Below, piece by piece: positions 35,519-61,000 of a stretch of 64,000 nucleotides of DNA. Source of the DNA: Hormiphora californensis (lineage: Eukaryota; Animalia; Ctenophora); the NCBI GenBank assembly GCA_020137815.1, contig CM035354.1:1798001-1862000 (forward strand). Direction: 5' to 3'. The notes beneath the pieces were generated by a model, which did not search any database, was not told the origin of the DNA, and worked only from the letters and a program-made list of their open reading frames with translations. The position numbers were made by a program, and so were the translations under genes. The number at the start of each line of letters is the position of its first letter. Position 1 is the first letter of the stretch.

Positions 35519-35843
35519 TTTCTAATAAATGGAAAGTGAGTTGGTTTTAGAACGTTTGGCGTCAAACAATATTATCTTAAACAAGACATAAATAAGTTTT
35601 TATATATGACAAACAACAGGAAGCTGCAAGATAGCAAAATAAACTATACACAAAACACTAAAATATATTCTAAATTCTTTATTGGTAGAAGTTTCAAACT
35701 TTCACGGATGACGGAAAAAATTCGCATTTTTCCGGTAGGTACGTCATGTTGATGTCAAGTTCAGCCTGATCTACCCGTGCTTTAGTACCCGTGCGCTACG
35801 TAAAGTGTGCGTCTCATTACGGTAATGCGTTACCGTTTCTCCA

Positions 35844-36936: not shown

Positions 36937-38411
36937 CTAAATAGGTTGCCAGTCTGCTGGTGAACTAAAAACACCGCTCACCATCTCCTCTGTAACATCC
37001 TCCAAAGTTGCAGGGTTCCACCGCGGATTATTGTCCTTGTCCACCAACAACGCCCTGACACCCTCCTGAAACTCACCCAAGGCAAAGGTCGGATCCGCAA
37101 TCTGGACCTCCATCCTGAGACACTCCGTGAAGTCGAGGGAGCGAGAGAGGTGTTGAGTTCGGTGGGCAATACAAAGGGCAATCGGTGACATGGTTGAGAG
37201 TGTCTTGTCAGTTGCTGCAGCGAATTCAGTGGCGCTAGCCTGTAATCGGGAGCGGATCTCCAGAACCGATGGTGCGGAGAAACACTTTGAAATCTCCAGC
37301 AGATTGGACTGGAATGTCAGGTCTGGGATATCATCAGGCTGAAAAGACTCCAAACATTCTACTACATTGTGATTCATATGTGGAAGCTACACAACAGACA
37401 AGTCAGCAATGATCTCCAGATACAGTTTAAAGACAAAGGTCGGACAGGGATCAAGGCAGTCGTACCACCAATGACCAAGACAGGATCGAGTGCAAACCAA
37501 ACACTCTATGACGAGTCCTTTGCGGTCATAGGACCAAAGCTATGGAACAGTATCCCAGCAGAGCTCAGCCGCATTGACAAGTTCGAGAGTTTCAAACGGG
37601 CCCTTACGAAGCACTTCAAGGAAATCCCGGATGAACCTCCTGTTCAAGGTTACAGTAGGAGGAACAACAACTCAGTGCTGGACTGGCTGAGAGATAAACC
37701 TGAAGGGTGTTCGCACGAGGCGATGACCCTGTTGCAGCAGAGGATCTGATCTTCTACAGCTTCGAACAACCTAAAGTGACTAAAGTGAGTGAGCTCACCC
37801 TCACTTCCACATGAAAGTATACCCTCCCGGAGTTCGGAAATTCGGTCCGTGAAGTGCGTCACAAAATCCAAATGAAGTGCATCAGCACCCCTGGTTCTGT
37901 TGCCAGTTAGGGCGAGATACATACCAACATCACCGAGCCTGGATAGGAAATACGTGGCACCCGCATCTGGGTAAAATCCAATCTTGGTTTCAGGCATGGC
38001 AAACATAGATCGAGGAGTGCAGACTCTGTATCGGCTGTTACAACACAACCCCATTCCTCCACCCATCACAATACCATCACCAAGGGATATAATCGGTTTA
38101 AGGAACATTTTCAATCGGTGGTGCATCTGATTTTCACGGGCCATGTTTCCTAAATTCACTATATCTCCACCAGCACAGAAAGCCTTACCACCCGCTCCCT
38201 CCATAAGGATAATGTCCACACTTTCATCCTTTTCAATTTCTCCCAACCTCGCTATGATTCTCTCCACCATTTCATGATTGTAAGAGTTCAGGGCTTTCGG
38301 CCGGTTCAGCAATATTGTAGCTACCCGGCCGTGGTGAGCGAATTCTGCCACATGCGATAGAGATCGTGAAGGAGTGGATACGAGACGACGTAATTGTCGA
38401 GTGAGTAACAT
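36937..38411 (-). pseudogene. HIBCH: HIBCH paralogue disrupted by a LINE fragment
   Basis: Near-identical to 38878-39930 but split at 37365-37791. Confidence 0.8.
37365..37791 (+). mobile_element. 5'-truncated CR1/L2-type LINE 3' end
   Basis: Absent from the paralogous copy; encodes an ORF2-type C-terminus SFAVIGPKLWNSIP..SFKRAL..IPDEPP; repeated CTAAAGTGA tail. Confidence 0.85.
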
Positions 38412-41277: not shown

Positions 41278-41717
41278 ACGATTCTGACAAGCAGATCCCT
41301 GAATTATGTGAATCAATAGTTAACATTAAAGCCTTAGAATAGCGAGAAAGGTGATAAAAAGCATCAGAAAACGGAAAACTTGACGGGTTTTTAAAAATGA
41401 ATTCGATTTTTCGCCTTTTTTGAGCTGCGCTTGCTTGGTTCGAAACGCGCGCACGCGTACCTGGGACCTGCAGCGCATAACATTTTTTGTAAACCTGAGA
41501 TTTCGGTTCCAAGATTTTAAAAATACCCTTTTGGACTTTTTCAACTTTTGGCGTTTTGTTGCTATTTGTCTCTCTGGCCATCGATAGGCCAGAGAGGGTT
41601 CCAGACGTTAAGATCAACAAGATCTCTTCTTTATTTTCTTTTTCTAGTTGAGCACACTCAACGAAACGTCAAAGTTCTTCCCGGAAATTTCCGCGGAAAG
41701 GACTTATTATTCATACA

Positions 41718-41756
41718 TCAAACTTTTCAACACTACTTTAAACAAATTAATTTGAG
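41718..41756 (+). other. Spliced-leader-like sequence at the 5' end of a retroposon, no GT donor
   Basis: TCAAACTTTTCAACACTACTTTAAACAAATTAATTTGAG; identical to the reverse complement of 54948-54986; matches my recollection of the Pleurobrachia SL (needs verification). Confidence 0.75.
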
Positions 41757-41890
41757 ATATGTCCTCAGGATGTTGAGACCGCCCGTAGGGGCAGGCAGAA
41801 GTTATGACGGAGAAACTCAATACCTCTGATGCAGATGCTGATCCACTGGAATGCTGGGGTTTGTCGATGATGGAAAAACTTCGTTGTGCA

Positions 41891-42425
41891 ACCGCGGAAG
41901 AAGCAACTCTTGATCGCAAGTTGAATTTGGTTATATTTGGGCTGCCAGAAACTACGGCAAGGGCTACTGAGCATGAAGTTCAGGATATCTTTGGAGAGCT
42001 CAATGAAAAACCAGTCATATCTTCTACAAAGCGTATTGGCGAAAAGACTGATAACCGACCGAGACCAGTAATTGTTACACTTGAAAGGAGGGAAACTTTG
42101 TTACAACTTCTAAGAAAAGCAAAACAGCTCCGAGATTCAGAGAAATTCTCCTCGGTGTTTCTCTCCCCCGACCTAACACCGGAGGAGCAGCGAGAGCGGA
42201 AAACTCTCGTTGATACAGTGAAAGGACTGAGGCGAGACAATCCGAATGGACGATACTGGGTTAGCAGGGGGGTAATTAAATGTGGCTGACCTGCTACATG
42301 TAATTTGTACTCTAAAGAGACTTCAAAAGGAACCTTATGACTATCAATTTAGCCCACAAAAAGGGGCAGTATATGTTGTATTTTATCCAATGTATACATT
42401 TTAGATTTAATAATAATAATAATAA
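41891..42425 (+). mobile_element. 5'-truncated retrocopy of element A inserted into element A
   Basis: Matches 43009-~43546 except one substitution seen and tail length; TSD TCGTTGTGCA at 41881-41890 and 42426-42435. Confidence 0.9.
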
Positions 42426-43553
42426 TCGTTGTGCAGTAGAGGACGTTTTTTATATCAAGAACGGGCTCAAACAACCAAGTGAACAACAGGTTGATGGAGT
42501 ATTGTCCAAGTTATTGGATTCTAGTTTGTATGATGATCCTGAGCAGTATATTGAGGACGCACTGCCGAAAGACTCCGAAATGAGAAAGTATAATGTTGAT
42601 CGTTTCATGGCTTTCACCGAGAACCTCTCTCGTCATATTTTTCGGATAGTGAGAGAAATAGGACCAGTTATGAAGGAGAAACGTCTGTATGCAACTGCCC
42701 GAATGAAAGAACGCCTGGAACTAGAGGAGTGTAATCAGAAGCTCAAGGAGGTACAAGAAGAGCTTGGCACTTTTAAGGAAGAAATCGACAAACATCGGGT
42801 ATCAAGGATTGAACTGCAAGAGAAGCTGATTGAAGCACAAAATACTTTGATTGAAGTACAAGGTCGAAAACTTAGTTCAGTGTCAGAGTCTGTTCAGAAG
42901 CAATTGCAGGGCTACTCCAAGGTGCTTGTACAGAATTGCTCTGCAGCTATTACACCATCCCGCCTCCAAGCAGCATTGAAGAAAGCGACTGTACCCCATC
43001 CAAGTACAACCGCGGAAGAAGCAACTCTTGATCGCAAGTTGAATTTGGTTATATTTGGGCTGCCAGAAACTACGGCAAGGGCTACTGAGCATGAAGTTCA
43101 GGATATCTTTGGAGAGCTCAATGAAAAACCAGTCATATCTTCTACAAAGCGTATTGGCGAAAAGACTGATAACCGACCGAGACCAGTAATTGTTACACTT
43201 GAAAGGAGGGAAACTTTGTTACAACTTCTAAGAAAAGCAAAACAGCTCCGAGATTCAGAGAAATTCTCCTCGGTGTTTCTCTCCCCCGACCTAACACCGG
43301 AGGAGCAGCGAGAGCGGAAAACTCTCGTTGATACAGTGAAAGGACTGAGGCGAGACAATCCGAATGGACGATACTGGGTTAGCAGGGGGGTAATTAAATG
43401 TGGCTGACCTGCTACATGTAATTTGTACTCTAAAGAGACTTCAAAAGGAACCTTATGACTATCAGTTTAGCCCACAAAAAGGGGCAGTATATGTTGTATT
43501 TTATCCAATGTATACATTTTAGATTTAATAATAATAATAATAATAATCATACA

Positions 43554-46500
43554 CCCAACAAGTTGAGAATCCTCAACAATCACTCACCACCCCGATCACA
43601 TGATCACGCGATCCAAAGCCAAGGCACGTCTCTCACCAGTAGCCCTTCGGCCGTCATCATCCCTACACAGACCGTTCCACCCACAAGCTCACCTCAGATC
43701 GTTTGTCGTATCCCCTGACGACTCTCTATCCTCCGACAGCTCAGGATCGGCTTCAGACGGTGACCATGATTATGCTACTCCCAACACCAGCATCACAAGG
43801 GGAACACCCATTTCAAACTCAACGCCCATAAGCAGATTGATAAATGAGTCGAGGTGGTTTACAGAAGAGAAGTGTGGGCAATGCTATGAAACACTGCCGT
43901 CTTATGAGAATGCCAAATGTGAAGCATGTCATGAACCGTTTCACCAGACCTGTATGACACCGGTTAATCAATCTGAACAAATGGTTCATACACCTGTAGT
44001 GTGGTATTGTACTGCCTGTTTCAACCTAAACAGATTAGTTTGGAAGACTACAGAGCCTTGTAAAGCTAACTGTTGGGGACCGTTGAATGGAGAAGAGCTC
44101 ATCGAGGCTTTCTCTAACATCTCTATGATCAGTCAGGGATGGTCAACCAACCTGTTCAAAGTTCCCTTCGGTCAAGTGGGCCGTTCTTTCATTGATGAAC
44201 TTACCAGACTGGCAGGTCTCTTCAGTGATAGGGAAGACACCAGAGGATGGTCCTTATCTGCTTTGGTTATAGCCCCACTGCTGCTACTCCAGAAGCCGGC
44301 CAGGAAGTCGAAGAATCGGGAGCATGCTCAAGTTCTCAAACGACGCCTAAAACTGTGGCACGATGGAGACTTTGAGGCGTTGGTTCGGGAAGCCAAGGTT
44401 ATCCAGAAACCATTGAAGCACAATGTCCCATCTTCGGAACTCTGCACTAAGAGGTTTGTGGACCTAACCAGAGAGGGGAGAGTTACAGAGGCAACTGCAT
44501 GGTTGAACCCCGAGAGGCATACAACTGGAGTTAAGGACTGCAACGACGAGTCCGTATTGTCTGATCTGCTAGAGAAACACCCAAAGGGTCAGCCTGCCAA
44601 CAGTACCCTGGCGAGACAGGGGCCAACAGATGCAGTATTGGAAGTCACCTTTGACGGTATGAATGGGCAAACGATTTTCTCATGCGGCAAAAGCCTCAAA
44701 GGTAGTGGAGGACCAAGTGGACTAGATGCAACAGGAATACACCGAATCCTTTGCTCCAGGAAATTCAAGAAATCACCCCCAGCACTGTGCACAGCGCTTG
44801 CAAAAGCAGCTCGGACCCTAGCCACAGAGCAGGTTGACTTGAAAGCTTTAGACATTTTCTGTGCAAGTCGCCTCATGCCCCTTGCCAAGCCTGGAGGTGG
44901 TACGCGTCCTATTGGAATAGGAGAGTGTTTCAGACGTGTTATGACCAAGGCCATTATTCGCACCATCAAGTCGGACATCAAGAGTGCGGCTGGAAAGGTT
45001 CAACTAGCTGCAGGTCAGTTAGGAGGTGTGGAGGCAGCGATCCATGCACTGAGTGAGAAGTTTGAATCTGAGGAATGTGAAGGTGTACTGTTGTTGGACG
45101 CCCAGAACGCGTTTAACAATCTCAACCGGAAAATGGCCCTGAAGAACACTACCTTCTACTGTCCGGACCTCTCCACATTTCTGACCAACATCTACGGGAA
45201 GCCAAGGGCACTTTTTGTTGGTGAAAAGCTACTGTGGAGCTCTGAAGGAGCCACACAGGGAGATCCAGCTGCAATGGACTTCTACTCAATTGGCATACTA
45301 AGACTGATCGAGCTTGCGGAGACGCCAGATACAACACAAGTGTGGTATGCAGATGATGCAAACAATGCAGGGAAGCTCACGGGCTTGTTAGAGTGGTTTG
45401 ACAAGGTGACAACCTTTGGCCCTAGTTTCGGATATTTTGTAAACCCTGCAAAGTGCCATCTTATCGTGAAACCTGAACTGCTCGACCATGCAAAGCGGCT
45501 GTTTGGAGATACTGGGGTTCAAATCACTGCTGAAGGTGCTCGTCACCTAGGTGCTTCCATAGGATCTGAGACCTTCAAGCAAACATTTGTTTCTGCTGCA
45601 GTTTCCAAATGGTGCATTGAGCTGGAAAATCTTGTGGCTATTGCCAAAGCCCATCCTCATTTGGCGTACAGCAACTTTGTGAGAAGCTTCCGATTCAAGT
45701 GGGCCTTTCTCCAGCGAACAGTTCCAGACATCAGTGATCTGTTTGATCCGCTTGAACACACCATCCGTTCACAGTTGATTCCATGTCTGGTGGGCCGTCA
45801 AGTGTCCGACCTAGAACGGGAGATACTGGCACTCCCCTCTGGGAAAGGTGGAATGGGTATTGAGAACCCCGTCAAAACCTCTGACAGATCATACAGCAAC
45901 TCCCGAGCATTGACGAAGCCCCTTGTTGATTTGATACTATGCCGTAACGAAGAAGAAATAGAAATGGCTCTAGTGGAGAAGAATGCAAGAGAGGCAAGGA
46001 ACAAGATAGCAAAGGAGAATGAGGACCACCACTCAGACACTCTCAAAGAGTTACTCACTAGAATCACATGCCCAAAGCTAGTGAGATGTCTAGAGCTCGC
46101 TGGAGAGGCCGGAGCATCTGTATGGCTCACGGCAACACCCTACCCTCACCTGGGCTTCGAACTGAATCAATTGGAATTCGTCGACTCAGTGGCACTGCGA
46201 TACGGGTTTGAGGTCAAAGATTTGGGCGCGACATGCGTATGTGGAAAGCCAAACAATGCGGACCATACCTTGTCCTGTTCAACCGGGGGCTATTCCATCC
46301 TCCGTCACGACAACATCAGGGACCTAATGGCGGAGATATGCTCGTATGCGGGCCTCAAAGGTGTGGAAACAGAGAAGCTACTTCTCCCTTGTCCGGACGG
46401 CATACACTTTCACCCTTCGGCAAACACAGCCCCTGATGCAAGGATGGATGTGGTCGCACTTGACATGTGGCGAAAAATGCAGCTGGCTCATATGGATGTG

Positions 46501-47110
46501 CGAATTTTCCATGCCAATTCGCCCTCCTATATCGACACGCCCCTCGACCAACTCTACCGAAGAAACGAGGCTAGCAAGAAGCAGTCGTACGGAAAGCGTG
46601 TAAGAGAAGTTGAAGGGGGTGCCTTCTCTCCGCTGGTTATGAATACAGCAGGCGGGATAGCCAACGAGTTCCAAAAGGTGCTGAAGACTCTCTCACACCG
46701 AGTCTCCACAAGAACCGGAGAACCGTACAATGAAGTTATGGCGCACCTGAGGACGAGGCTACGATTCTCCCTCCTGAGATCATGCCTTATTGCTTTAAGA
46801 GGAAATCGGAGGAAGATCGCTATCACTAGTCTAACAAATACTGAACTGGTGACCTGAGGAAGAGAGGAATGAGAAGAACTTGAGGATCCGAAGATAAATT
46901 GATCCGAGGATGAATTGATTTATTGTTTTGTTCTTTCTTCTTTCTCGATTTTTTTTCTCTGCTGCGGTTCACACACTTTAAAAATTTTCCTCCGTTTTTA
47001 AATTTTTGTCTCTGGTGCAGGTGTCTCCTGAGTCCTGTTGTCTCCGGTCTGCTCAGTGCTCAGTGCTCATTGCTCAGTCGACAGTCCTGAAGCATCTTTA
47101 TCTTTTTACA
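43554..47110 (+). mobile_element. RLE-type (CRE-like) retrotransposon body; 5' UTR probably continues left of 41717; 3' end not defined
   Basis: Intact 1085-aa ORF with a T-rich 3' region; no TSD found. Confidence 0.7.
43600..46857 (+). CDS. CRE-clade-like non-LTR retrotransposon polyprotein (PHD finger, RT, zinc knuckle, restriction-like endonuclease)
   Basis: C4HC3 PHD; RPIGIGE, GGVEAAIH, LDAQNAFN, EGATQGDP, WYADD; CVCG..H..C, RHDNIRD, ARMDV..DVRI, EASKKQSY, FSPLVMNTAGG. Confidence 0.93.
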   Translation: MITRSKAKARLSPVALRPSSSLHRPFHPQAHLRSFVVSPDDSLSSDSSGSASDGDHDYATPNTSITRGTPISNSTPISRLINESRWFTEEKCGQCYETLPSYENAKCEACHEPFHQTCMTPVNQSEQMVHTPVVWYCTACFNLNRLVWKTTEPCKANCWGPLNGEELIEAFSNISMISQGWSTNLFKVPFGQVGRSFIDELTRLAGLFSDREDTRGWSLSALVIAPLLLLQKPARKSKNREHAQVLKRRLKLWHDGDFEALVREAKVIQKPLKHNVPSSELCTKRFVDLTREGRVTEATAWLNPERHTTGVKDCNDESVLSDLLEKHPKGQPANSTLARQGPTDAVLEVTFDGMNGQTIFSCGKSLKGSGGPSGLDATGIHRILCSRKFKKSPPALCTALAKAARTLATEQVDLKALDIFCASRLMPLAKPGGGTRPIGIGECFRRVMTKAIIRTIKSDIKSAAGKVQLAAGQLGGVEAAIHALSEKFESEECEGVLLLDAQNAFNNLNRKMALKNTTFYCPDLSTFLTNIYGKPRALFVGEKLLWSSEGATQGDPAAMDFYSIGILRLIELAETPDTTQVWYADDANNAGKLTGLLEWFDKVTTFGPSFGYFVNPAKCHLIVKPELLDHAKRLFGDTGVQITAEGARHLGASIGSETFKQTFVSAAVSKWCIELENLVAIAKAHPHLAYSNFVRSFRFKWAFLQRTVPDISDLFDPLEHTIRSQLIPCLVGRQVSDLEREILALPSGKGGMGIENPVKTSDRSYSNSRALTKPLVDLILCRNEEEIEMALVEKNAREARNKIAKENEDHHSDTLKELLTRITCPKLVRCLELAGEAGASVWLTATPYPHLGFELNQLEFVDSVALRYGFEVKDLGATCVCGKPNNADHTLSCSTGGYSILRHDNIRDLMAEICSYAGLKGVETEKLLLPCPDGIHFHPSANTAPDARMDVVALDMWRKMQLAHMDVRIFHANSPSYIDTPLDQLYRRNEASKKQSYGKRVREVEGGAFSPLVMNTAGGIANEFQKVLKTLSHRVSTRTGEPYNEVMAHLRTRLRFSLLRSCLIALRGNRRKIAITSLTNTELVT

Positions 47111-48902: not shown

Positions 48903-49272
48903 TGATATGGGGCAGAGAAAAGAGAAGGGGAGAAAAACAAAGAACTTCCGAGTAGGTTGAAATGAGGGATTGAGGAGTGATGTATTTCTTTATTATATGG
49001 ATGTTTATGATTTTTATTGTGTGAAAATATCCGGCACTTGAGGGAAGATATGATATATGAGTGTGTTATACGCTGTGTGTATTGTATTGTGTTTTGTTTC
49101 TTATGTTTTACACACCTTGTAATTATTACACAATGATACTACCCCCCCCCCCCCCTGCACCTATAAAAGTCTGGCAATCTTTCGGTGTTGATATCTTTGG
49201 TAGAAATTGGTTTCATATATATCAAGGGTTTGGATTGTTGAATGTTTTTTATGAATTGTGCTGGTGCAGGTA

Positions 49273-49908
49273 CTGGGTGTTCATTTTGGATCTTTACAAG
49301 CGTTGGCCTTCACCCAGAAAAAAGTTGACAAGATCAGGTCATGAAACTTCATACTTGGACTATTCTATACCCTCATTCAAGGTTCCTGGGGGTTTTGGAG
49401 CTCTAGCACCCCGGGAAGTGTATTTTTGGCATCAAAACTACCAGAAGGAATTTTTGCTGGTGCTGAGACTTTGCTAAAATGTTTTTTGGGTATTTTCTAT
49501 GTCAATCCTAAAGTTTCATAGAGATTGGATGTGTTTTTCGGACTCAAAATTTCGATAAAAGTGGCTGGAAAGGCTCGAAAACAGCTCAAAAACTGCTAAA
49601 ATTGAGTCTTTCCAGCCACTTTTATCGAAATTTTGAGTCCGAAAAACACATCCAATCTCTATGAAACTTTAGGATTGACATAGAAAATACCCAAAAAACA
49701 TTTTAGCAAAGTCTCAAAACCAGCAAAAAATCCCTTCTGGTAGTTTTGATGCCAAAAACACACTTCCCGGGGTCCTAAAGCTCCAAAACCCCCAGGAACC
49801 TTGAATGAGGGTATATAATAGTCCAAGTATGAAGTTTCATGACCTAATCTTGTCAACTTTCTTCTGGGTGAAGCCCAACGCTTGTAAAGATCCAAAATGA
49901 ACACCCTG
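49273..49908. mobile_element. Palindromic Tc1/mariner-like MITE with TA TSD
   Basis: TA|CTGGGTGTTCATTTTGG ... CCAAAATGAACACCCTG|TA; ~300-bp inverted arms. Confidence 0.88.
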
Positions 49909-50266
49909 TAGATAATTAAATGAGTTGTATGAACAAACCAACTACAAAGTGATTTCCCTGTTATACCTGAATTTGGATTGAAGCTTAGAAATTCACAGGA
50001 ACAAAGAGAGGTGTGAGTGCATTGGCTGTCAAGCCATTTCCTGACAGATGATCCATACAAGATGGCACACCGCTCGTCGTTATCGTTTGGTTCTCGGAGG
50101 GATCAATGATCTAAGAAAACTAGAGGACTAGACGGTTGGAACATTTCATGCATTTTGGATGGTTTCACTAATGTCCCCTCCCTTATCTGTCCCATTATAT
50201 CTACCCATATCTTCCCTAATATCCCCTGTTCCCTAATTATTAATATCCCCTGTTATCTACAGCACC

Positions 50267-52762: not shown

Positions 52763-53706
52763 ACAATTTAGAACATGGAAATCGTCTCTGTCCATCCTCT
52801 CAATTTTGAGAGTGAGAGAGAGGCGCCTGGGTTGAAGAAGCACGAATTTGTGACTAGCATAATGTAAAAACTATTACACTACTCTCTATACCACTACGTT
52901 ACCACCGTGTATCGATATTATTCGCCGTTTTTTTCTTGTGTTGTTGTGTACCATGTATTTTTTGTAAAATTAATCCGTTTTTAAGTTGAAAAAGGACCAG
53001 AAGTGAGCCATAATGAATCACTTCAATCCTTTGAAACGAAACACCTGTGTTTCTATTTTGTGTGTATGGAATCCCTATCAAATCCCCGGTGTGACTGCTC
53101 CACTGGAGAGTGTAAAATGATGTAACGTGACACGATCTTGGCCCGGTCACACTTTTCTCGGTTTCCATATCAACTTGCTGTGACGCGCGGGTACACTATT
53201 TGGAGATAACTCCGCGCAGCTTCTGCTTCCTAAAATTCGTACGCGCAAATGAAGTAACGCGCGTAATTTAGTAAAATCAATTGCGCGGCGTAGGGTTTTG
53301 TAAATTTGACTCGAATATTTTAGAAATCAAAATTTAAAAACGCGTCACTTTTCCAAAAAAAACGAACGAGGGCTTAACTTCAAACAGCAATCCGACAATA
53401 CCGGGTTCCATGATGGATACGAGGGTACTCTCGACACTTCGGTGTTGTACCACTTTGCAGGTTCACTCTGTGACCGATCGTGGTGTGCGTTTATTATCTG
53501 AGACCCCGGTGTCGGATTGCTGTTTCTTTCAACGAGGGCTTTGGAGTTGAACGTTTGCCAAGCTTTGGAGACGAGATTTCGTCCTCGCAGTCAAACGATC
53601 AGATACCTTCAATATTTAGCGTTGCGAAAGTTCATGTTGTTGAAAAGGTGGACGGGGTGATAAATTGGTGTGTGGGGGGACACGTCCGGGGCGTGGGAGG
53701 TCATAC

Positions 53707-54894
53707 GAAGTTTCAAACTTTCATCAACTACAACGTAAAACTATTTATTGAGTGATGGGAACGAAAGATAACGAGGGCGATAACCCTACGAATGAACGAT
53801 TGATAAAAGCAGTGAACGACCATGTTATGGAAATTATGAGAATGGACTACGAGGATACCTCGGAAGAGATAACTTTTGAACCGCAGCAAGTAACGAATAA
53901 CTACAACTTTATCAAACAATTCCCCGAGTCAAAACTTGGTTCACCGAGTGACGATATATGCTCTCACTTTAGACGTATTCTCAAGACCTTATCTAAAGAG
54001 GAAATCATTGACACTACATGTAAAACTTTTTTGTCCGGTGTGAAACTTCTGAAATGTGCAATGCATAGCCTTGATGAGGTTAGTAGTACGAGGAAACTAG
54101 AGGAGGAGTTTCGTAAGTGCAAAGAAGAACTTGACCGCCACCGTGTTACGGTGATTGAGCTGCAGCAGACCGTCATCAACAATCAACAGCAGCAACTCAG
54201 TTCAATGACAAACTCAGTACAGAAGGTGAAAGCTTACTCTACTGTTCTTGCTCAAAACTGTGCTGCAGTCTCTCCGGTGGTGAGAAAATATTCTCAAGAA
54301 CCAACTCACGCACCATTGTCCGAGAGGGATAAAAATCTTGTAATATTCGGTATACCAGAAACAACTGACCGCCTGACTAAGAACAGTGTCGATGGTTTGT
54401 TTGCCGAGCTGAATGAAAAACCGAAAGTAAATTCGATCAAACGTATCGGCGAGAGAAACGAGAAGGGCCCTCGACCTCTATTGGTTTCTTTGGAAAAACG
54501 AGCAACACTTATGGCGCTGCTGAAAAAGTCACGTCAGCTGAAGAACTCGGAACACTTCTCAGCTGTTTACTTTTCACCAGACCTAACTCCAGTCCAAATA
54601 AAGGAGCGTAAAGCCCTTATCACCACCTTGAAAAAGCTCCGCTTAGAGGACCCGGGCGGAAAATATTATATCAAAAACAATATAATCCAAGTAGGATAGG
54701 ACTATTATTCCCACTACGTGATCTATCATAATCTTGTTGCAAAGCTAGCCGCTTTTGGAGCGAGGGCTGTTGAGGATGAAAGAGGATGTGTTGATGAATC
54801 TGACTCCCAGCAGCAGAACTTGTGCTGAGCCGTATATCGGACAGTTAAAAAGCGGACTATAAATTTACATTTTGTATTTGTATTTGTATTTGTA
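53707..54894 (+). mobile_element. ORF1-only LINE-like retroposon B with variant SL-like 5' end and (TTTGTA)4 tail
   Basis: SL-like 53707-53752 ends in TTGAG 2 nt before the ATG; ORF homologous to element A; tail at 54871-54894; TSD uncertain (possibly AAGT). Confidence 0.75.
53755..54699 (+). CDS. LINE ORF1-like protein (coiled coil plus RRM/CTD-like region)
   Basis: ERDKNLVIFGIPE, KRIGE..GPRPLLV, VYFSPDLT; paralogous to the ORF of element A. Confidence 0.85.
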   Translation: MGTKDNEGDNPTNERLIKAVNDHVMEIMRMDYEDTSEEITFEPQQVTNNYNFIKQFPESKLGSPSDDICSHFRRILKTLSKEEIIDTTCKTFLSGVKLLKCAMHSLDEVSSTRKLEEEFRKCKEELDRHRVTVIELQQTVINNQQQQLSSMTNSVQKVKAYSTVLAQNCAAVSPVVRKYSQEPTHAPLSERDKNLVIFGIPETTDRLTKNSVDGLFAELNEKPKVNSIKRIGERNEKGPRPLLVSLEKRATLMALLKKSRQLKNSEHFSAVYFSPDLTPVQIKERKALITTLKKLRLEDPGGKYYIKNNIIQVG

Positions 54895-54914
54895 AGTCAA
54901 AACACGGTGGTTGG

Positions 54915-54947
54915 TTGGAACGTTTCGGGGTTGTGCCCCTTCTTCAG
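54915..54947 (-). ncRNA. Hammerhead ribozyme core directly downstream of an SL-like sequence
   Basis: CUGAAGA-a-gggg(cacaa)cccc-GAAA-cg-UU-ccaa; palindromic AACGUU; stem I imperfect. Confidence 0.5.
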
Positions 54948-54988
54948 CTCAAATTAATTTGTTTAAAGTAGTGTTGAAAAGTTTGAAA
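54948..54988 (-). other. Spliced-leader-like sequence, no GT donor
   Basis: TTTCAAACTTTTCAACACTACTTTAAACAAATTAATTTGAG followed by CT. Confidence 0.75.
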
Positions 54989-55090
54989 GATCAATATTAC
55001 TTCCTTCAGTCTAAATTATCCCTGAGCTTTAATTCTTGAGTATATTTCCACAGATTCGTGGCCCCAAACTAGTCTGTAGGCGGGTATTTT

Positions 55091-58000
55091 ATGTCTAACA
55101 AAGCCAGTGGCTCTGGAATAACAAGGAGCAAACGTCATTTCCCTAACAAGGAACCCAACAACTTATCAGAGGTGAGATTGAAAGTTGTTTACTTTACACA
55201 AACATCCTAAGTAGTTTCAAGCTCTCGCTGATCTCCAAATATTTGTTAGATACGCCCAGATTCAGGCAGCGAAGAGGATTCTTCAAACATAGTCGATGGG
55301 CTTGTGGAAATAGGTAAACTTATCACTGATAACCCCGGATTAAAGAACGATCTTGAATGCTACTTCAAAGAGACCAAGAAAAAAGGACGACGCCCATCAC
55401 GTATGTCAAATGCTTTGTTACTTATCCATTGAATATACTCGTGTTTAAACAACTTTTACAGATATCTATTAACTACGTCAGACCCTTTGTTTTAAAACAT
55501 TTTCTCGACTATTGTAATAACATAAGGGTGAGCGGTAAAATATCATAACTTCTTAAGGACCATTACAATCGTTTCTCAGGTAAGAAAAAGCGTGAGAAGG
55601 CCCGAGAAGTGAAAGAGGAGTCGAAGTTTGAGGAACGGCTAGAGCACCTTATTCAATCTTATCTCACCGAAAAGAGTCGCACCGCACCTGACATTGACGT
55701 GAGTAGAATTACAGTTTTTAGATAAAGTCTCCTATTTGATAGAGAGAAGACTCCTCTGTAAGTCTCTTATTTAAGAGAGATAAGACAGTTCTCTATTACT
55801 GCCCACCCCCATCTAAGCTAGGGAGATATGTACTATGACATTCTTTAACCACCCCCTCCTATTCAGGGAGATGAGTTGTTACAAGGATTCAAGAGTACGT
55901 TTACCGCTATAGGGGATTCTAACAACGCCACCGTCACACAAGAGTCGCCAATGGAAATAGACAGTGGAGAAGAAGATGAAGTCACATTCATCCCAACCCC
56001 ATCATCATCTACCACAAACACAACTCCCCCAAAGTTTGCTCCTTTCCCAAACAACCCTCCAATAAACCCATACACACGCCCCCAACAACAGCAGGCAATA
56101 TACCCACCCCGACTCCCAACAACTACAGCACCAATACGGAGCAGACCGCCACCATCGCCACCGGTCTGTTACCCCATCTCACCCGCTGCTGCAGTAGCCC
56201 CACCTAACCGACCCAGGGGTCCGCCTCCTCAACATTTGTTTGGGGAGATCAGGCACCAAGTTCGTCGACCACCCTTCCCAACAAACCAGCTACCGAAACA
56301 GTTCCGGCGACACCCCCCTCCCGGGCCTCCCTCACTCCCTCCTCCACCTCACATACTAACGGTACAGCAGCAACAATTCAACAATACCAGACCACCTCCC
56401 CCACCTCCCCCCGGCCCATCTTGGGATGTTCCTCCTCGTGTCCCTTACCACCCGGCAATGATAGAGGCTGATCTGAGGCACATTCCCCTACCGTCATCCC
56501 CTGTACATCCCGTCCCTGCTGCAGTAGTTCCAGAGGGAGGAGAGGCGGAGATGGAGATAGATGATGATGATGATGAGACCCATTCCATGATAACCATCCC
56601 TGAATCGGAGGTTAGTGTTTGTTTGAACCTCTCTTATTTGTACACAGATTGTTATTATATATTCTAACAGTTTATATATTCTAACAGTTTAGGCAGAAGT
56701 TTTGGTGTTTGTGTTGGTTCGTGAATTATTGGTAGGACTTACTTGAACCAAAACCAAACACGTTTGGTGGATTTCCCGGGGCAACAGAACGTGAAAATAT
56801 TTTATATCGAAAATAAATGATATGGAGACGCCCGGGGGCCGGGGTGCTGTCAAGTCCACTGTTCATATGAATGGCTACAGTTTGGAAAACTCAGGTGTTT
56901 TATGCAACGAGACAACTTTAAATTGTTTTCTTTCATTAAGAAGTGATTGGACAGTTTGTAAATAGTGGACTTGACAGCACCCCGGCCCCCGGGCGTCTCC
57001 ATATCATTTATTTTCGATATAAAATATTTTCACGTTCTGTTGCCCCGGGAAATCCACCAAACGTGTTTGGTTTTGGTTCAAGTATCATGTGTTTTGGTTT
57101 TACCACAGATTCATTTCTCGACCAAATTGAGCCGGCCTGAAGTTTATCTAAAATCGGTAGACACTCGCGATATACACATACATATATTGAAAATCGTCCT
57201 AAATTTTACGACCGTCTTGTTATGATTGACCAATTTACACCATCTCGCTTTAAAACACGGCCAAGCGCTAGCACTAAAAGATGTTTTTGGAATTGTGCAG
57301 TTACTATTTACCGTTTTTGAGAAATTGTGTTTCTTAGAAATCGTCTTAATTATTTAAGACCGTCATAACTCTTGTTATAATAGACCAATTTACACCATCT
57401 CGCTTTAAAAAACGGTCAAGCATTAGCACTAAAAGATGTCTTTGGAATTGTGCAGTTACTGTTTACCGTTTTTGAGAAATCGTGTTTCTTAGAAATCGTC
57501 TTAATTATTTAAGACCGTCATAACTCTTGTTATAATAGACCACTTTGCGCCATCTCGCTTTAAAACACGGCCAAGCACTAGCACTAAAAGATGTTTTTGG
57601 AATTGTGCAGTTACTGTTTACCGTTTTTGAGAAATCGTGTTTCTTAGAAATCGTCTTAATTATTTAAAGTGAGAGTGGACCGAATCAGAATTGGACAAGT
57701 TTGTTGTAGGTAGTATAGATTATCTTTCTGAGCATTTTGCAGTTTTAGCCGCTCAAAATCGACCCACCCATCACTGAGATATTTTTGTTATGTTGGGAGA
57801 ACTCCTGTTTAATCAGTATGTATAAAACAGAATAGAAACAATCGTGGTGTTTTACTAACACATTCTGAATATATGCAGTGAGGTTGACATGTCCATGCAC
57901 AGAAGCAGGGCAATGCAAGCCAGCATATTAAGAATTTAAAGAATGTGTTAGTAAAACACAAGGATTGTTTCTATCCTGTTTGATAAATACTGATCCAGCA

Positions 58001-61000
58001 GGAATTCTCCCAACATAACAAAAATATCTCAGTGATGGGTGGGTCGATTTAGAGCGGCAAAAAGGCAAAATGTTCAGAGAGCTATTCTCTACTACCTACA
58101 ACAAACTTGTCCAATTCTGATCCGGTCCACTCTCACTTTAAGACCGTCATAACTCTTGTTATAATAGACCAATTTATACCATTTCGCTTTAAAACACGGC
58201 CAAGCACTAGCACTAAAAGATGTTTTTGGAATTGTGCAGCTACTGTTTACCGTTTTTGAGAAATCGTGTTTCTAAGATTGACGCAAAAATCAGTATCTAT
58301 CTATCTATCGATCTATCGACCTATATATCTTAATTGTGCGAAATTTGAGCCCTTCATAACTTGTGAAGTACAAACGCTAGGAACGTGAAATTTTTACACA
58401 AGAAAGTTCCCTAGTTGGCAACTCTTAATACAAAATTTGAGCTGGATTGGAATAATGGAAGTATGTTTTTTAGCCGCTTGAAAAGGGCCTATCTGTAAAA
58501 TAAGTATATAAGCGCTGGCCCGTAAAGGGGCGTTGACAGCCAGTTCCCCTCTCTGCTGTGGGTGTCAGGTTACACTGTACTACTCCTGCATACTACTGCT
58601 GCAGTAATGGCACTACTTTCACCACAATTGTGTTTCTTGGCCTGGGGTTGGCCCCGGGGCGCTTGCCAGCGCTGTGATGAGAAAGGCTGCTTCTTCTTAT
58701 TTTGTAATCTCTACAATGTTCTGGGCTGACACTATCAATCAATGATTATTTAATGCTGTTGGGACCCTGCGTCATAGTCACAATAGCACACATGTTAAAA
58801 GATGTGTTGTTTAGTCTAAAGAATTTTATGTTTGATTAACGCGACGGCCGACGCTAGTTCTGGTCGAATCGTTACGTGTCATCTCCGCCTTTCAACTTGT
58901 TTTGTTCAAAGGAAGGAGGGTCGAACAAGGCAACTTTCAACAATAGTGGCCATGAATCAGGGTGAGATCATCTGGGGTATCATGTTTCAGGCTTGGTGTA
59001 AACATTCCTAGTGTTGAGATAATTCCTAGTGTAAATTTGTAATTTGAAACTCTAATTAGATCTGCTATAACTGCAGGGGGACCTCATTAGAGTATTGCCC
59101 TTTGTTATGCCAATGAGTATGGGAGGAGGGAGGGTGACTTTTTTAGACTGTCTTTAAATGTGACCTCCCTTTTGCTTAAACAACGAACAGGGCAAGAAGT
59201 GGGTAGGCGGCAGTCAATGGAAAATATGGAGTAGGGGGTAGGCAGTGTAGAGGGTTTCATGATTTAACTGCCTCTCACACTTTCTCTCCTGCACAGGATA
59301 CAGGAAGTTATGCAGAGGATAGTATCCCCTCTGAAGACGACCTAGAGAGTATCTCTTCCTCTGACGACAGTGGATCAAACCATACCCCCTCCCCACCAGC
59401 ACGATCTAGAACATCAAACCACACTCCCTCCCCACCAACAACATCACGGTCTAAAGGAACATCAAACCACTCTCCATCTCCATTGCGGTCTAAAGCATCA
59501 AACCATTCTCCGTCATTATCATCACGAGCTGTCTCAAACCCCCGAAAGACATTTCCAGAACCTGTAGCAATGAAGTCAACCACCGATAAAACCACTCGTA
59601 AACCAGTGAAAACCACTCCATCGTTATTGAAAACTATCATGTGTTCTCCGCCTAAACCACCTCAACCACTCAAACCGTCACCAACAACTTCAAATCTACA
59701 CTCAGCGTCAAATCTACAAATAACGATAACCACTCAACTACCCAATGGGACACCCCCGGACACATCAGGTACATACGATTAAATTACTCCGTGTTTTAGG
59801 TTGGATAATGACTGGTTAGTGGTTTGTGAGAACCGAGACATTTATCTGAGAAGTTGTTAACCTCTCTTTTCTTTCCGTTAGGACCTGCAGAAGGGTCATC
59901 TCACGATGGAAAAGAAGAGGGAGAACTAGATGGTTCAGACTCGTCAGATCAACTAGAAACAGGGGAGGTAGCAGCTCTTAGATCCATGCTACTGAATAGT
60001 ATCCGGAAAAAGAAAGATAACGTTCCATCACCACCCCATCCTGACCCTGTTATCCCTCCCCCTGTAGAGCACCCATTGGAGCAGCTAGGTAAATAAGTTG
60101 TGTAGCTCTCCCTGTATTTTGAGGGTAAATGGAGGTCTTATATCCAGGAAGTCAGCCGAGAAAGAATGAAAAGAGGGAGGGAGAGCCGAGAGAGATTAGA
60201 GAACTGTGGATTCGCTCCGATACAACATAACTTTGTCCTTTTGCGCGGGCGCGGTCAACGAATTGCAGACCTCCTCGCGCGTTTGTGTATCACTAAGTCA
60301 CGTACACTCACTTTTTAGAGTTTTTCAGGTTAATTTGATAACTTGATAATAGTTGTTGTGACTACAAATATTATTTACTCACAAAAATTCCTTACAGCAG
60401 CTCCAGTATCTCCTGTTCGACAAAGTAAACGAATTAAAACCAGTGGCACTAGCTTCTCCCCGGGAGAAACAGGGTCGAGCAAGGGAACCTTCTCGATCGA
60501 GGAAGTGGCGGAGATAGTTGGAGATCTGCCAGTTGTCGATGAGGAGGCCTTTAAACGGTTTTATGTTAGCCGCAAACAGCAGAAGAAGGCTAGGCAACGT
60601 GCCAGGAGCTTCAAATGTGATCCGTGAGTTAAATTGAAATAACGATACTTTTTTGTCCAAAATATTTCACCCAGGGATTTATTGTAATTGTTTCTCCAGG
60701 TTGGATCTGCTAAAGGAAGAACTGTGCTTTGATCCCCTCGAGAGACAATGGTCTACCGTCAGTAGCTACAACACCGCAGCAGTCACACCGGGTTTCTCCT
60801 GGAAACGTCTAGCTAGATACCTCAAACACGCCGAATCTTTGTCATCACGGTTCAAACAAACCTTCACTGAGACCCACAATGGAACATCATCGTTCGATCA
60901 ATTGTTTCCAAGTGTTCCTGAGAAGAATACGGTAGGAGAGGTGGTAGTAGTAGAGAAGCAAGTTGAACCTCAGGTTGTGGAAGTGAAGTCAGGAAAGAAA

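Follow-up and report, generated by a model that had tools for sequence, protein, structure and literature searches.

Within a 64,000-nt stretch of the genome of the ctenophore Hormiphora californensis (the window), a short unit with one open reading frame and a simple-repeat tail, here called element B, begins with a sequence that resembles the known spliced leader (SL) of this animal without being identical to it. The locus hence raises two linked questions, namely whether this sequence is a genuine spliced leader, and how a unit with such a 5' end is copied.

A variant spliced leader heads element B

The leader-like 46-mer occupies 53707-53752 of the forward strand and is followed by TG and then by the ATG at 53755, and thus ends 2 nt before the start codon, as described in an earlier note on this DNA. 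The location given there is correct; the start, however, moves by two positions, as identity with the SL RNA gene reported below begins only at 53709. The leader exon, present in the window as a DNA copy, accordingly spans 44 nt (53709-53752, forward strand) and is 100% identical to the exon of that gene (L012:2030-2073). In DNA run X1, the best match to the window stretch among the runs, 23 contigs part from the window sequence ahead of 53709, and 26 do so after 53752.

The canonical leader of the window matches the SL printed for Hormiphora in passages of PMC8527503. Aligned to it, the variant is identical in 34 of 47 columns, a score that was equalled in 0 of 10,000 shuffles. The likeness to the leader of a first element, element A (41718-41756, forward strand, assigned by sequence match and used for comparison only), thus stands, but the shared motifs have to be placed differently: the copy on element A is 5'-truncated and matches only from 41718, and it is the canonical copy at 54948-54988 (minus strand), not named in the earlier note, that shares the full 11-nt 5' motif of the variant. 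Elsewhere in the window, positions 35690-35704 match the 5' end of the variant exactly over 15 nt (E 0.002), either as a relic or by chance.

The SL RNA gene and its rDNA neighbourhood

Scanning of metagenome contigs for the exact 3'-most 22 nt of the variant returned 23 loci, three of which (L012, L013 and L018) are SL RNA genes. In all three the exon is followed by GTAAG, i.e. the variant stands ahead of a GT donor, and a conserved region lies upstream of the exon. The gene is located about 1.6 kb upstream of the 18S rRNA 5' end in L012 and L013, on the opposite strand and pointing away, while L018 is 87% identical over 1.3 kb of the same spacer and has the SL gene at the same place, its contig stopping short of 18S. 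The regions that hold the variant SL gene and the rDNA spacer are L012:1-407 and 2030-2160, L013, and L018. With Rfam, SSU rRNA alone scored above the gathering score on the three gene loci, and the SL family had no match on them. In X1, the loose-end consensus on either side of the variant resembles the flanks of the SL gene (agreement 0.73 and 0.55), and the same donor follows the canonical leader as follows the variant.

The intron part of the variant SL RNA (L012:2074-2160) forms two hairpins with a folding z of -3.5, the complete SL RNA reaching -2.8 in L012 and -1.8 in L018. Two distinct gene sequences exist in all, and L012 differs from L018 by indels that are confined to the hairpin loops or their immediate vicinity. 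Neither version contains an exact match to the canonical Sm site, A-T(4-6)-G, a consensus taken from passages of PMC3795323, which also discusses SLeII genes. An SL RNA gene composed of exon, GT donor and Sm site, as anticipated earlier, is therefore recovered in L012, L013 and L018 as far as gene and donor are concerned, with the canonical Sm site absent. A near match, C-T4-G, lies in the segment that separates the two hairpins, and holding it single-stranded takes 1.5 kcal/mol; judged from its sequence, the variant SL RNA could possibly carry a divergent Sm site at this U-run.

A literature search for an SL gene upstream of 18S rDNA gave matches that were all on euglenozoans in the texts within its reach, and no SL gene in a large rDNA spacer was found in sources that were mostly abstracts. 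Two motifs of the variant had no match in full-text literature, figures apart, in which the canonical motif was matched. Derelle et al. in 2010 reportedly described several SLs per ctenophore species, and the variant leader may therefore already be in print. Passages of the Hormiphora genome paper place the origin of the leaders beyond the reach of the 2010 EST study (PMC8527503).

The variant on host transcripts

A search of transcript 5' ends, proposed in the earlier note as a check, places the variant on host RNAs. Of the 23 metagenome loci, 18 are transcript-like contigs that begin inside the variant leader; their library type is not given, and start points together with open ORFs point to an RNA origin. 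Among the 16 distinct proteins scanned (two orthologous duplicates were left out), 13 match Pfam host-gene families, including NAC, tektin, E1 dehydrogenase and a kinase, and three are without a Pfam match. The variant is abundant in the oligo-dT run X18, at a summed depth of ~9,300 that includes contigs of 335-501 nt ending in the leader, and nearly absent from the oligo-dT run X8, where it has a depth of 2-5 vs 2,618 for the canonical leader. The variant has a gene with a GT donor and heads transcripts that are unrelated to one another; it is hence a genuine spliced leader and forms a second SL class, in agreement with what had been suggested from the window. According to passages of PMC8527503, at least 56% of Hormiphora mRNAs are trans-spliced, and the count of leader copies in the genome is 718, each with more than 90% identity to a single sequence. 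The variant lies outside this set, and counts of trans-spliced genes obtained in such a manner may thus be low.

Axonemal families are found in 4 of the 16 transcripts (DM10, tektin, axonemal dynein light chain and RIB43A), accompanied by a DCX and a TPR protein, and the gene pairs L007/L023 and L014/L022 carry the variant in both of two different samples. Pairs and axonemal set alike hint at a non-random use of the variant. It is possible, albeit somewhat against our expectation, that use of the variant is biased towards certain tissues or stages (ciliated or sperm-forming cells), and that germline transcripts bearing it become retroposed, a reading that is compatible with the explanation preferred below and would add to it. 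It gains from the axonemal, DCX and TPR transcripts, from the strong difference between the RNA samples X8 and X18, and from the recurrence of the same genes in two samples. However, tektin carries the canonical leader in X18, the axonemal count covers variant-headed transcripts only and not a canonical-SL control set, and mRNAs for cilia are in any case plentiful in comb jellies. The rDNA-linked gene, instead of retrocopies, may moreover be the source of the variant's high DNA depth; as this gene can account for the depth, we rejected the latter as proof of a germline bias.

Acceptors shared by the two leaders

Nematode SL2 forms a leader class besides the main one and is encoded by genes of its own, and the variant is alike in both respects. 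The earlier note had considered that the variant may be SL2-like, i.e. a leader mainly for downstream genes of operons, and the gene pairs L007/L023 and L014/L022, each seen in two samples, hint at a gene preference. The variant differs from nematode SL2 in that it shares acceptors with the canonical leader. At one and the same junction, the tektin transcript has received the variant in L006 but the canonical leader in X18, these samples being 92% alike and possibly from two species. As for tektin in other runs, X8 stops before the 5' end, a tektin-like contig of X22 diverges before the junction, and the body is uncovered in DNA run X1. For the B family, L016, a second copy of element B, has the variant at the upstream acceptor, where 7 X1 contigs show a canonical-type end, the latter resting on 7 letters; the window copy carries the variant at an AG 18 nt downstream of the acceptor of L016.

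Both comparable acceptors, those of tektin and of the B family (2/2, a small number), hence take either leader, which would speak against an SL2-like acceptor set of the variant, although SL2 genes can also receive SL1. The variant also heads mobile elements (B and L020), and the swing in its RNA share from X8 to X18 is not predicted by a fixed operon role, even if mixtures of species could explain it. In addition, passages of a 2021 paper state that operons in ctenophores had not been reported to date (PMC7986045). We consider SL2-like use of the variant unsupported and improbable. Most likely, the variant is an interchangeable second leader whose share varies by sample, rather than an operon-specific SL2.

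Architecture and copies of element B

Behind the leader, element B consists of a 5' UTR of the 2 nt after the trans-splice junction (53753-53754), an ORF1 of 314 aa (53755-54699), a 3' UTR (54700-54870) defined by alignment with the 3' UTR of L016, and a (TTTGTA)4 simple-repeat tail (54871-54894), all on the forward strand. The tail, which is alike in L016, differs from that of element A, as noted before. Other copies have 18 extra nt ending in AG before the TG, as observed in L016 and at loose ends at 53751 in X1, X5 and X11, and the join in element B was therefore presumably made at an AG acceptor. Any target site duplication (TSD) is weak, again in line with the initial description, as the two AAGT copies (53708-53711 and 54894-54897) both overlap the ends of the element itself.

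L016 is a second full copy, 1,252 nt from leader to tail and 80% identical to B, whose leader, 3' UTR and tail it shares. The aligned copies (X1 contigs and L016) agree that the element ends at leader and tail. Element copies running upstream past 53707, and a variant absent from other transcripts or never standing ahead of a GT donor, had been named as grounds for abandoning the interpretation of the locus, and neither applied. No ORF2 is present between ORF1 and tail in either of the two full copies, window B and L016. The dN/dS between them is 0.23 (bootstrap 0.15-0.32) and, because both share this layout, selection likely acted within an ORF1-only unit. Summed X1 contig depth is ~280-750 over the body of B vs 11-17 in the right flank, which indicates a multi-copy element, summed depth not being a copy number. 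Element B thus measures 1.2 kb, exists in many copies and has ORF1 as its sole gene. A conserved 3' hairpin serving as a recognition site for reverse transcriptase (RT) was considered and rejected (z 0.45 for B, -0.96 for L016 and -0.80 for A), and a search of viral contigs gave 0 matches.

The element is nested in an antisense, non-coding insert of ~170 bp, which begins with the canonical SL (54948-54988, minus strand; the same leader as that of element A, and the Hormiphora SL less its first bases) and continues in a first part at 54895-54947 and a second part at 53631-53706, both on the minus strand. One X1 contig has the insert without B, joining 53704 to 54914 at a depth of 8.5 with 20 other letters between, and may represent an empty allele or a paralog. 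An X11 contig, bearing another organism label, skips both B and the insert and joins 53626 to 54986, its short side comprising 38 letters. GAAAG bounds the short insert at 53626-53630 and 54985-54989, and contig depth suggests that the insert is itself a repeat.

Several other elements were observed. L020:697-1165, a genomic element, combines the variant SL with a PHD-finger ORF; the 5' region of this element is patchily like the 5' UTR of element A. Element A (41716-43550) is rearranged, with 41886-42426 repeating 43004-43544 at 99.6%; its intact 352-aa ORF is found as P0027. An ORF of 1,085 aa with PHD/C1 and RT domains (43600-46857), which resembles a CRE-type non-LTR element, starts ~50 bp after the (AAT)n tail of element A. 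At 37378-37790, a 123-aa ORF (37378-37749) interrupts one copy of a tandem gene and has a tail unlike that of B and no Pfam match; by motif, it presumably resembles the C-terminus of a LINE ORF2. Long inverted-repeat elements, 83-93% self-complementary, are located at 49271-49910, 56740-57084 and 57664-58141.

The ORF1 family and its relation to element A

The ORF of element B is homologous to that of element A yet well diverged (46% identity over 220 aa, E 1e-61), in agreement with the first inspection. An AF2 model (mean pLDDT 62, pTM 0.28) predicts a long helix or coiled coil, an RRM-like domain and a small C-terminal domain. Foldseek against the PDB places human LINE-1 ORF1p at ranks 1-7 (E 1.8e-4 to 5.2e-4), a modest fold match given TM-scores of 0.2-0.4 and ACT domains ranking just below. 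By fold, the protein thus appears to be LINE-1 ORF1p-like as its best, if modest, match. Pfam gave no match above cut-off for ORF1, and a sequence search of the PDB returned two weak, irrelevant matches.

The protein has 26 close homologs at 45-88% identity, representing many diverged subfamilies, and Pleurobrachia gene models are among the named homologs of the family. A profile search with an E limit of 0.001 yielded 5,424 distant relatives. Of 21 homologs with known contig size, 20 are on contigs < 2 kb, an observation that says little in favour of an ORF1-only layout because metagenome contigs are usually short. Neither a longer homolog nor an ORF1-ORF2 fusion was detected among 7,990 candidates, likewise a weak indication, and none of 28 homologs scanned, of 150 listed, has an RT or endonuclease domain. 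P0030 (671 aa), a candidate ORF1-RT fusion, was discarded, being a gene model that joins an A-like ORF1 part to PSF3. Two distant ORF1 relatives, P0043 and P0198, are on ~4.3-kb contigs, a size fitting a full LINE, and are candidates for an autonomous relative.

A and B are sister groups (SH-aLRT 97) in an ORF1 tree of 68 proteins, obtained by quick search and midpoint-rooted, which comprises three sequences from DNA, 13 close homologs and 52 representatives picked by size (255-360 aa) from P0032-P0099, named LINE references being left out. This speaks against the earlier view of two independent families, and as A and B are sisters, a single origin of the design of SL, ORF1 and tail is the simpler reading. 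The view that SL capping may be a general strategy was borne out in part: SLs do head retroelements of more than one type, namely A, B, L020 and the antisense short insert. The word strategy is nonetheless too strong, since host trans-splicing, which affects at least 56% of mRNAs (passages of PMC8527503), puts SLs on retrocopies by default.

Proposed mechanism for element B

Based on these data, we propose that element B is likely a non-autonomous LINE, the RNA of which is trans-spliced by the host and then reverse-transcribed by the ORF2 protein of a partner LINE, with the variant acting as an interchangeable second leader. The partner is presumed, none having been found among the homologs scanned. 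Transcription of a source copy would start in upstream sequence of its own or result from read-through, and the spliceosome would then join whichever SL is available to the AG just before the start codon. ORF1p, kept under selection, would package the RNA, and the partner ORF2 would prime on the repeat tail and copy through to the 5' end of the SL, leaving almost no TSD. Two AG acceptors, spaced by 18 nt, are in use among B-family copies, which bear either the variant or a canonical-type leader there. As 2 nt before the ATG leaves no room for a LINE-type promoter, an SL-headed copy could serve as a source only through read-through and re-splicing.

Purifying selection, the absence of RT and the structure of an SL-headed mRNA would also fit if a LINE ORF1 had been domesticated into a host gene family and element B were a dead-end processed copy from that family, i.e. 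one that does not propagate itself. However, two copies that are 80% alike have in common a hexamer-repeat tail in place of poly(A), the family is split into many diverged subfamilies (26 proteins at 45-88% identity), and B interrupts another insert, making a host-gene retrocopy unlikely. The weakest alternative, that the leader match reflects chance or an assembly artefact, draws on nothing but the AT-rich sequence and can be dismissed with near certainty in view of the 44/44 identity to the gene exon, the 23 metagenome loci with the leader, and L016 as a second element copy of the same design.

A non-autonomous LINE that relies on host trans-splicing and a partner ORF2 remains our preferred explanation. 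A bolder version, which we regard as doubtful, is that B belongs to an old ctenophore superfamily of promoterless ORF1-only retroelements that would rebuild their 5' end by trans-splicing in each cycle, many ends being supplied by a tissue-biased second SL RNA with its gene in the large rDNA spacer. Four X11 contigs with non-leader sequence upstream of the acceptor count against the promoterless part, as they could represent a master copy with a 5' region of its own.

Comparison with known systems

HAL1 has a poly(A) tail and a clear TSD. Element B, with its hexamer tail and an overlapping TSD of at most 4 bp, works like HAL1 but is not classed as HAL1. More broadly, ORF1-only LINEs are known as HAL1 in the L1 clade, HeT-A in Jockey and Ag-Sponge in CR1, and B shares with these, as described in passages of PMC5786205 and PMC5753468, one ORF1p-like protein, the lack of RT, many copies and a presumed autonomous partner. 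In contrast to them, the 5' end of B is a host SL 2-20 nt before the ATG instead of a LINE 5' UTR, and the element has a hexamer tail and almost no TSD.

Dinoflagellate retrogenes are tagged by relicts of DinoSL, derive from trans-spliced RNA and possibly underwent repeated cycles (passages of PMC6050394). There, as in B, a DNA copy of the SL marks the retroposition of a trans-spliced RNA, but the DinoSL cases are mostly host genes with often stacked relicts, whereas the B family consists of mobile ORF1 units with a single, intact leader. In Hydra, ~30% of long reads from transposable elements (TEs) carry an SL (passages of PMC12220107). These TE RNAs use the host trans-splicing machinery, as B would in the proposed model; the Hydra case, however, concerns RNA, while B is an SL-headed genomic copy of an ORF1-only unit. 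ORF1-only LINEs, SL-tagged dinoflagellate retrocopies and trans-spliced Hydra TE RNAs are thus already known, and an SL-headed ORF1-only family was not found in full-text searches that reached mostly abstracts.

The variant is similar to the ctenophore SL of PMC8527503 in size and in its TGAG end, but agrees with it in only 34 of 47 columns and is encoded by a separate gene beside 18S rDNA. The window also demonstrates that some genomic leader copies are the heads of retro-insertions, a point absent from the passages of PMC8527503 considered here.

Conclusions

In conclusion, a ctenophore SL RNA gene is now known with its flanks, structure and location. For annotation it is relevant that retro-insertions account for some of the hundreds of leader copies in the genome. 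As each retrocopy records the leader and the acceptor used when it was made, such copies provide a countable genomic record of germline trans-splicing, with which a functional difference between two SL classes can be tested for in an early-branching animal.
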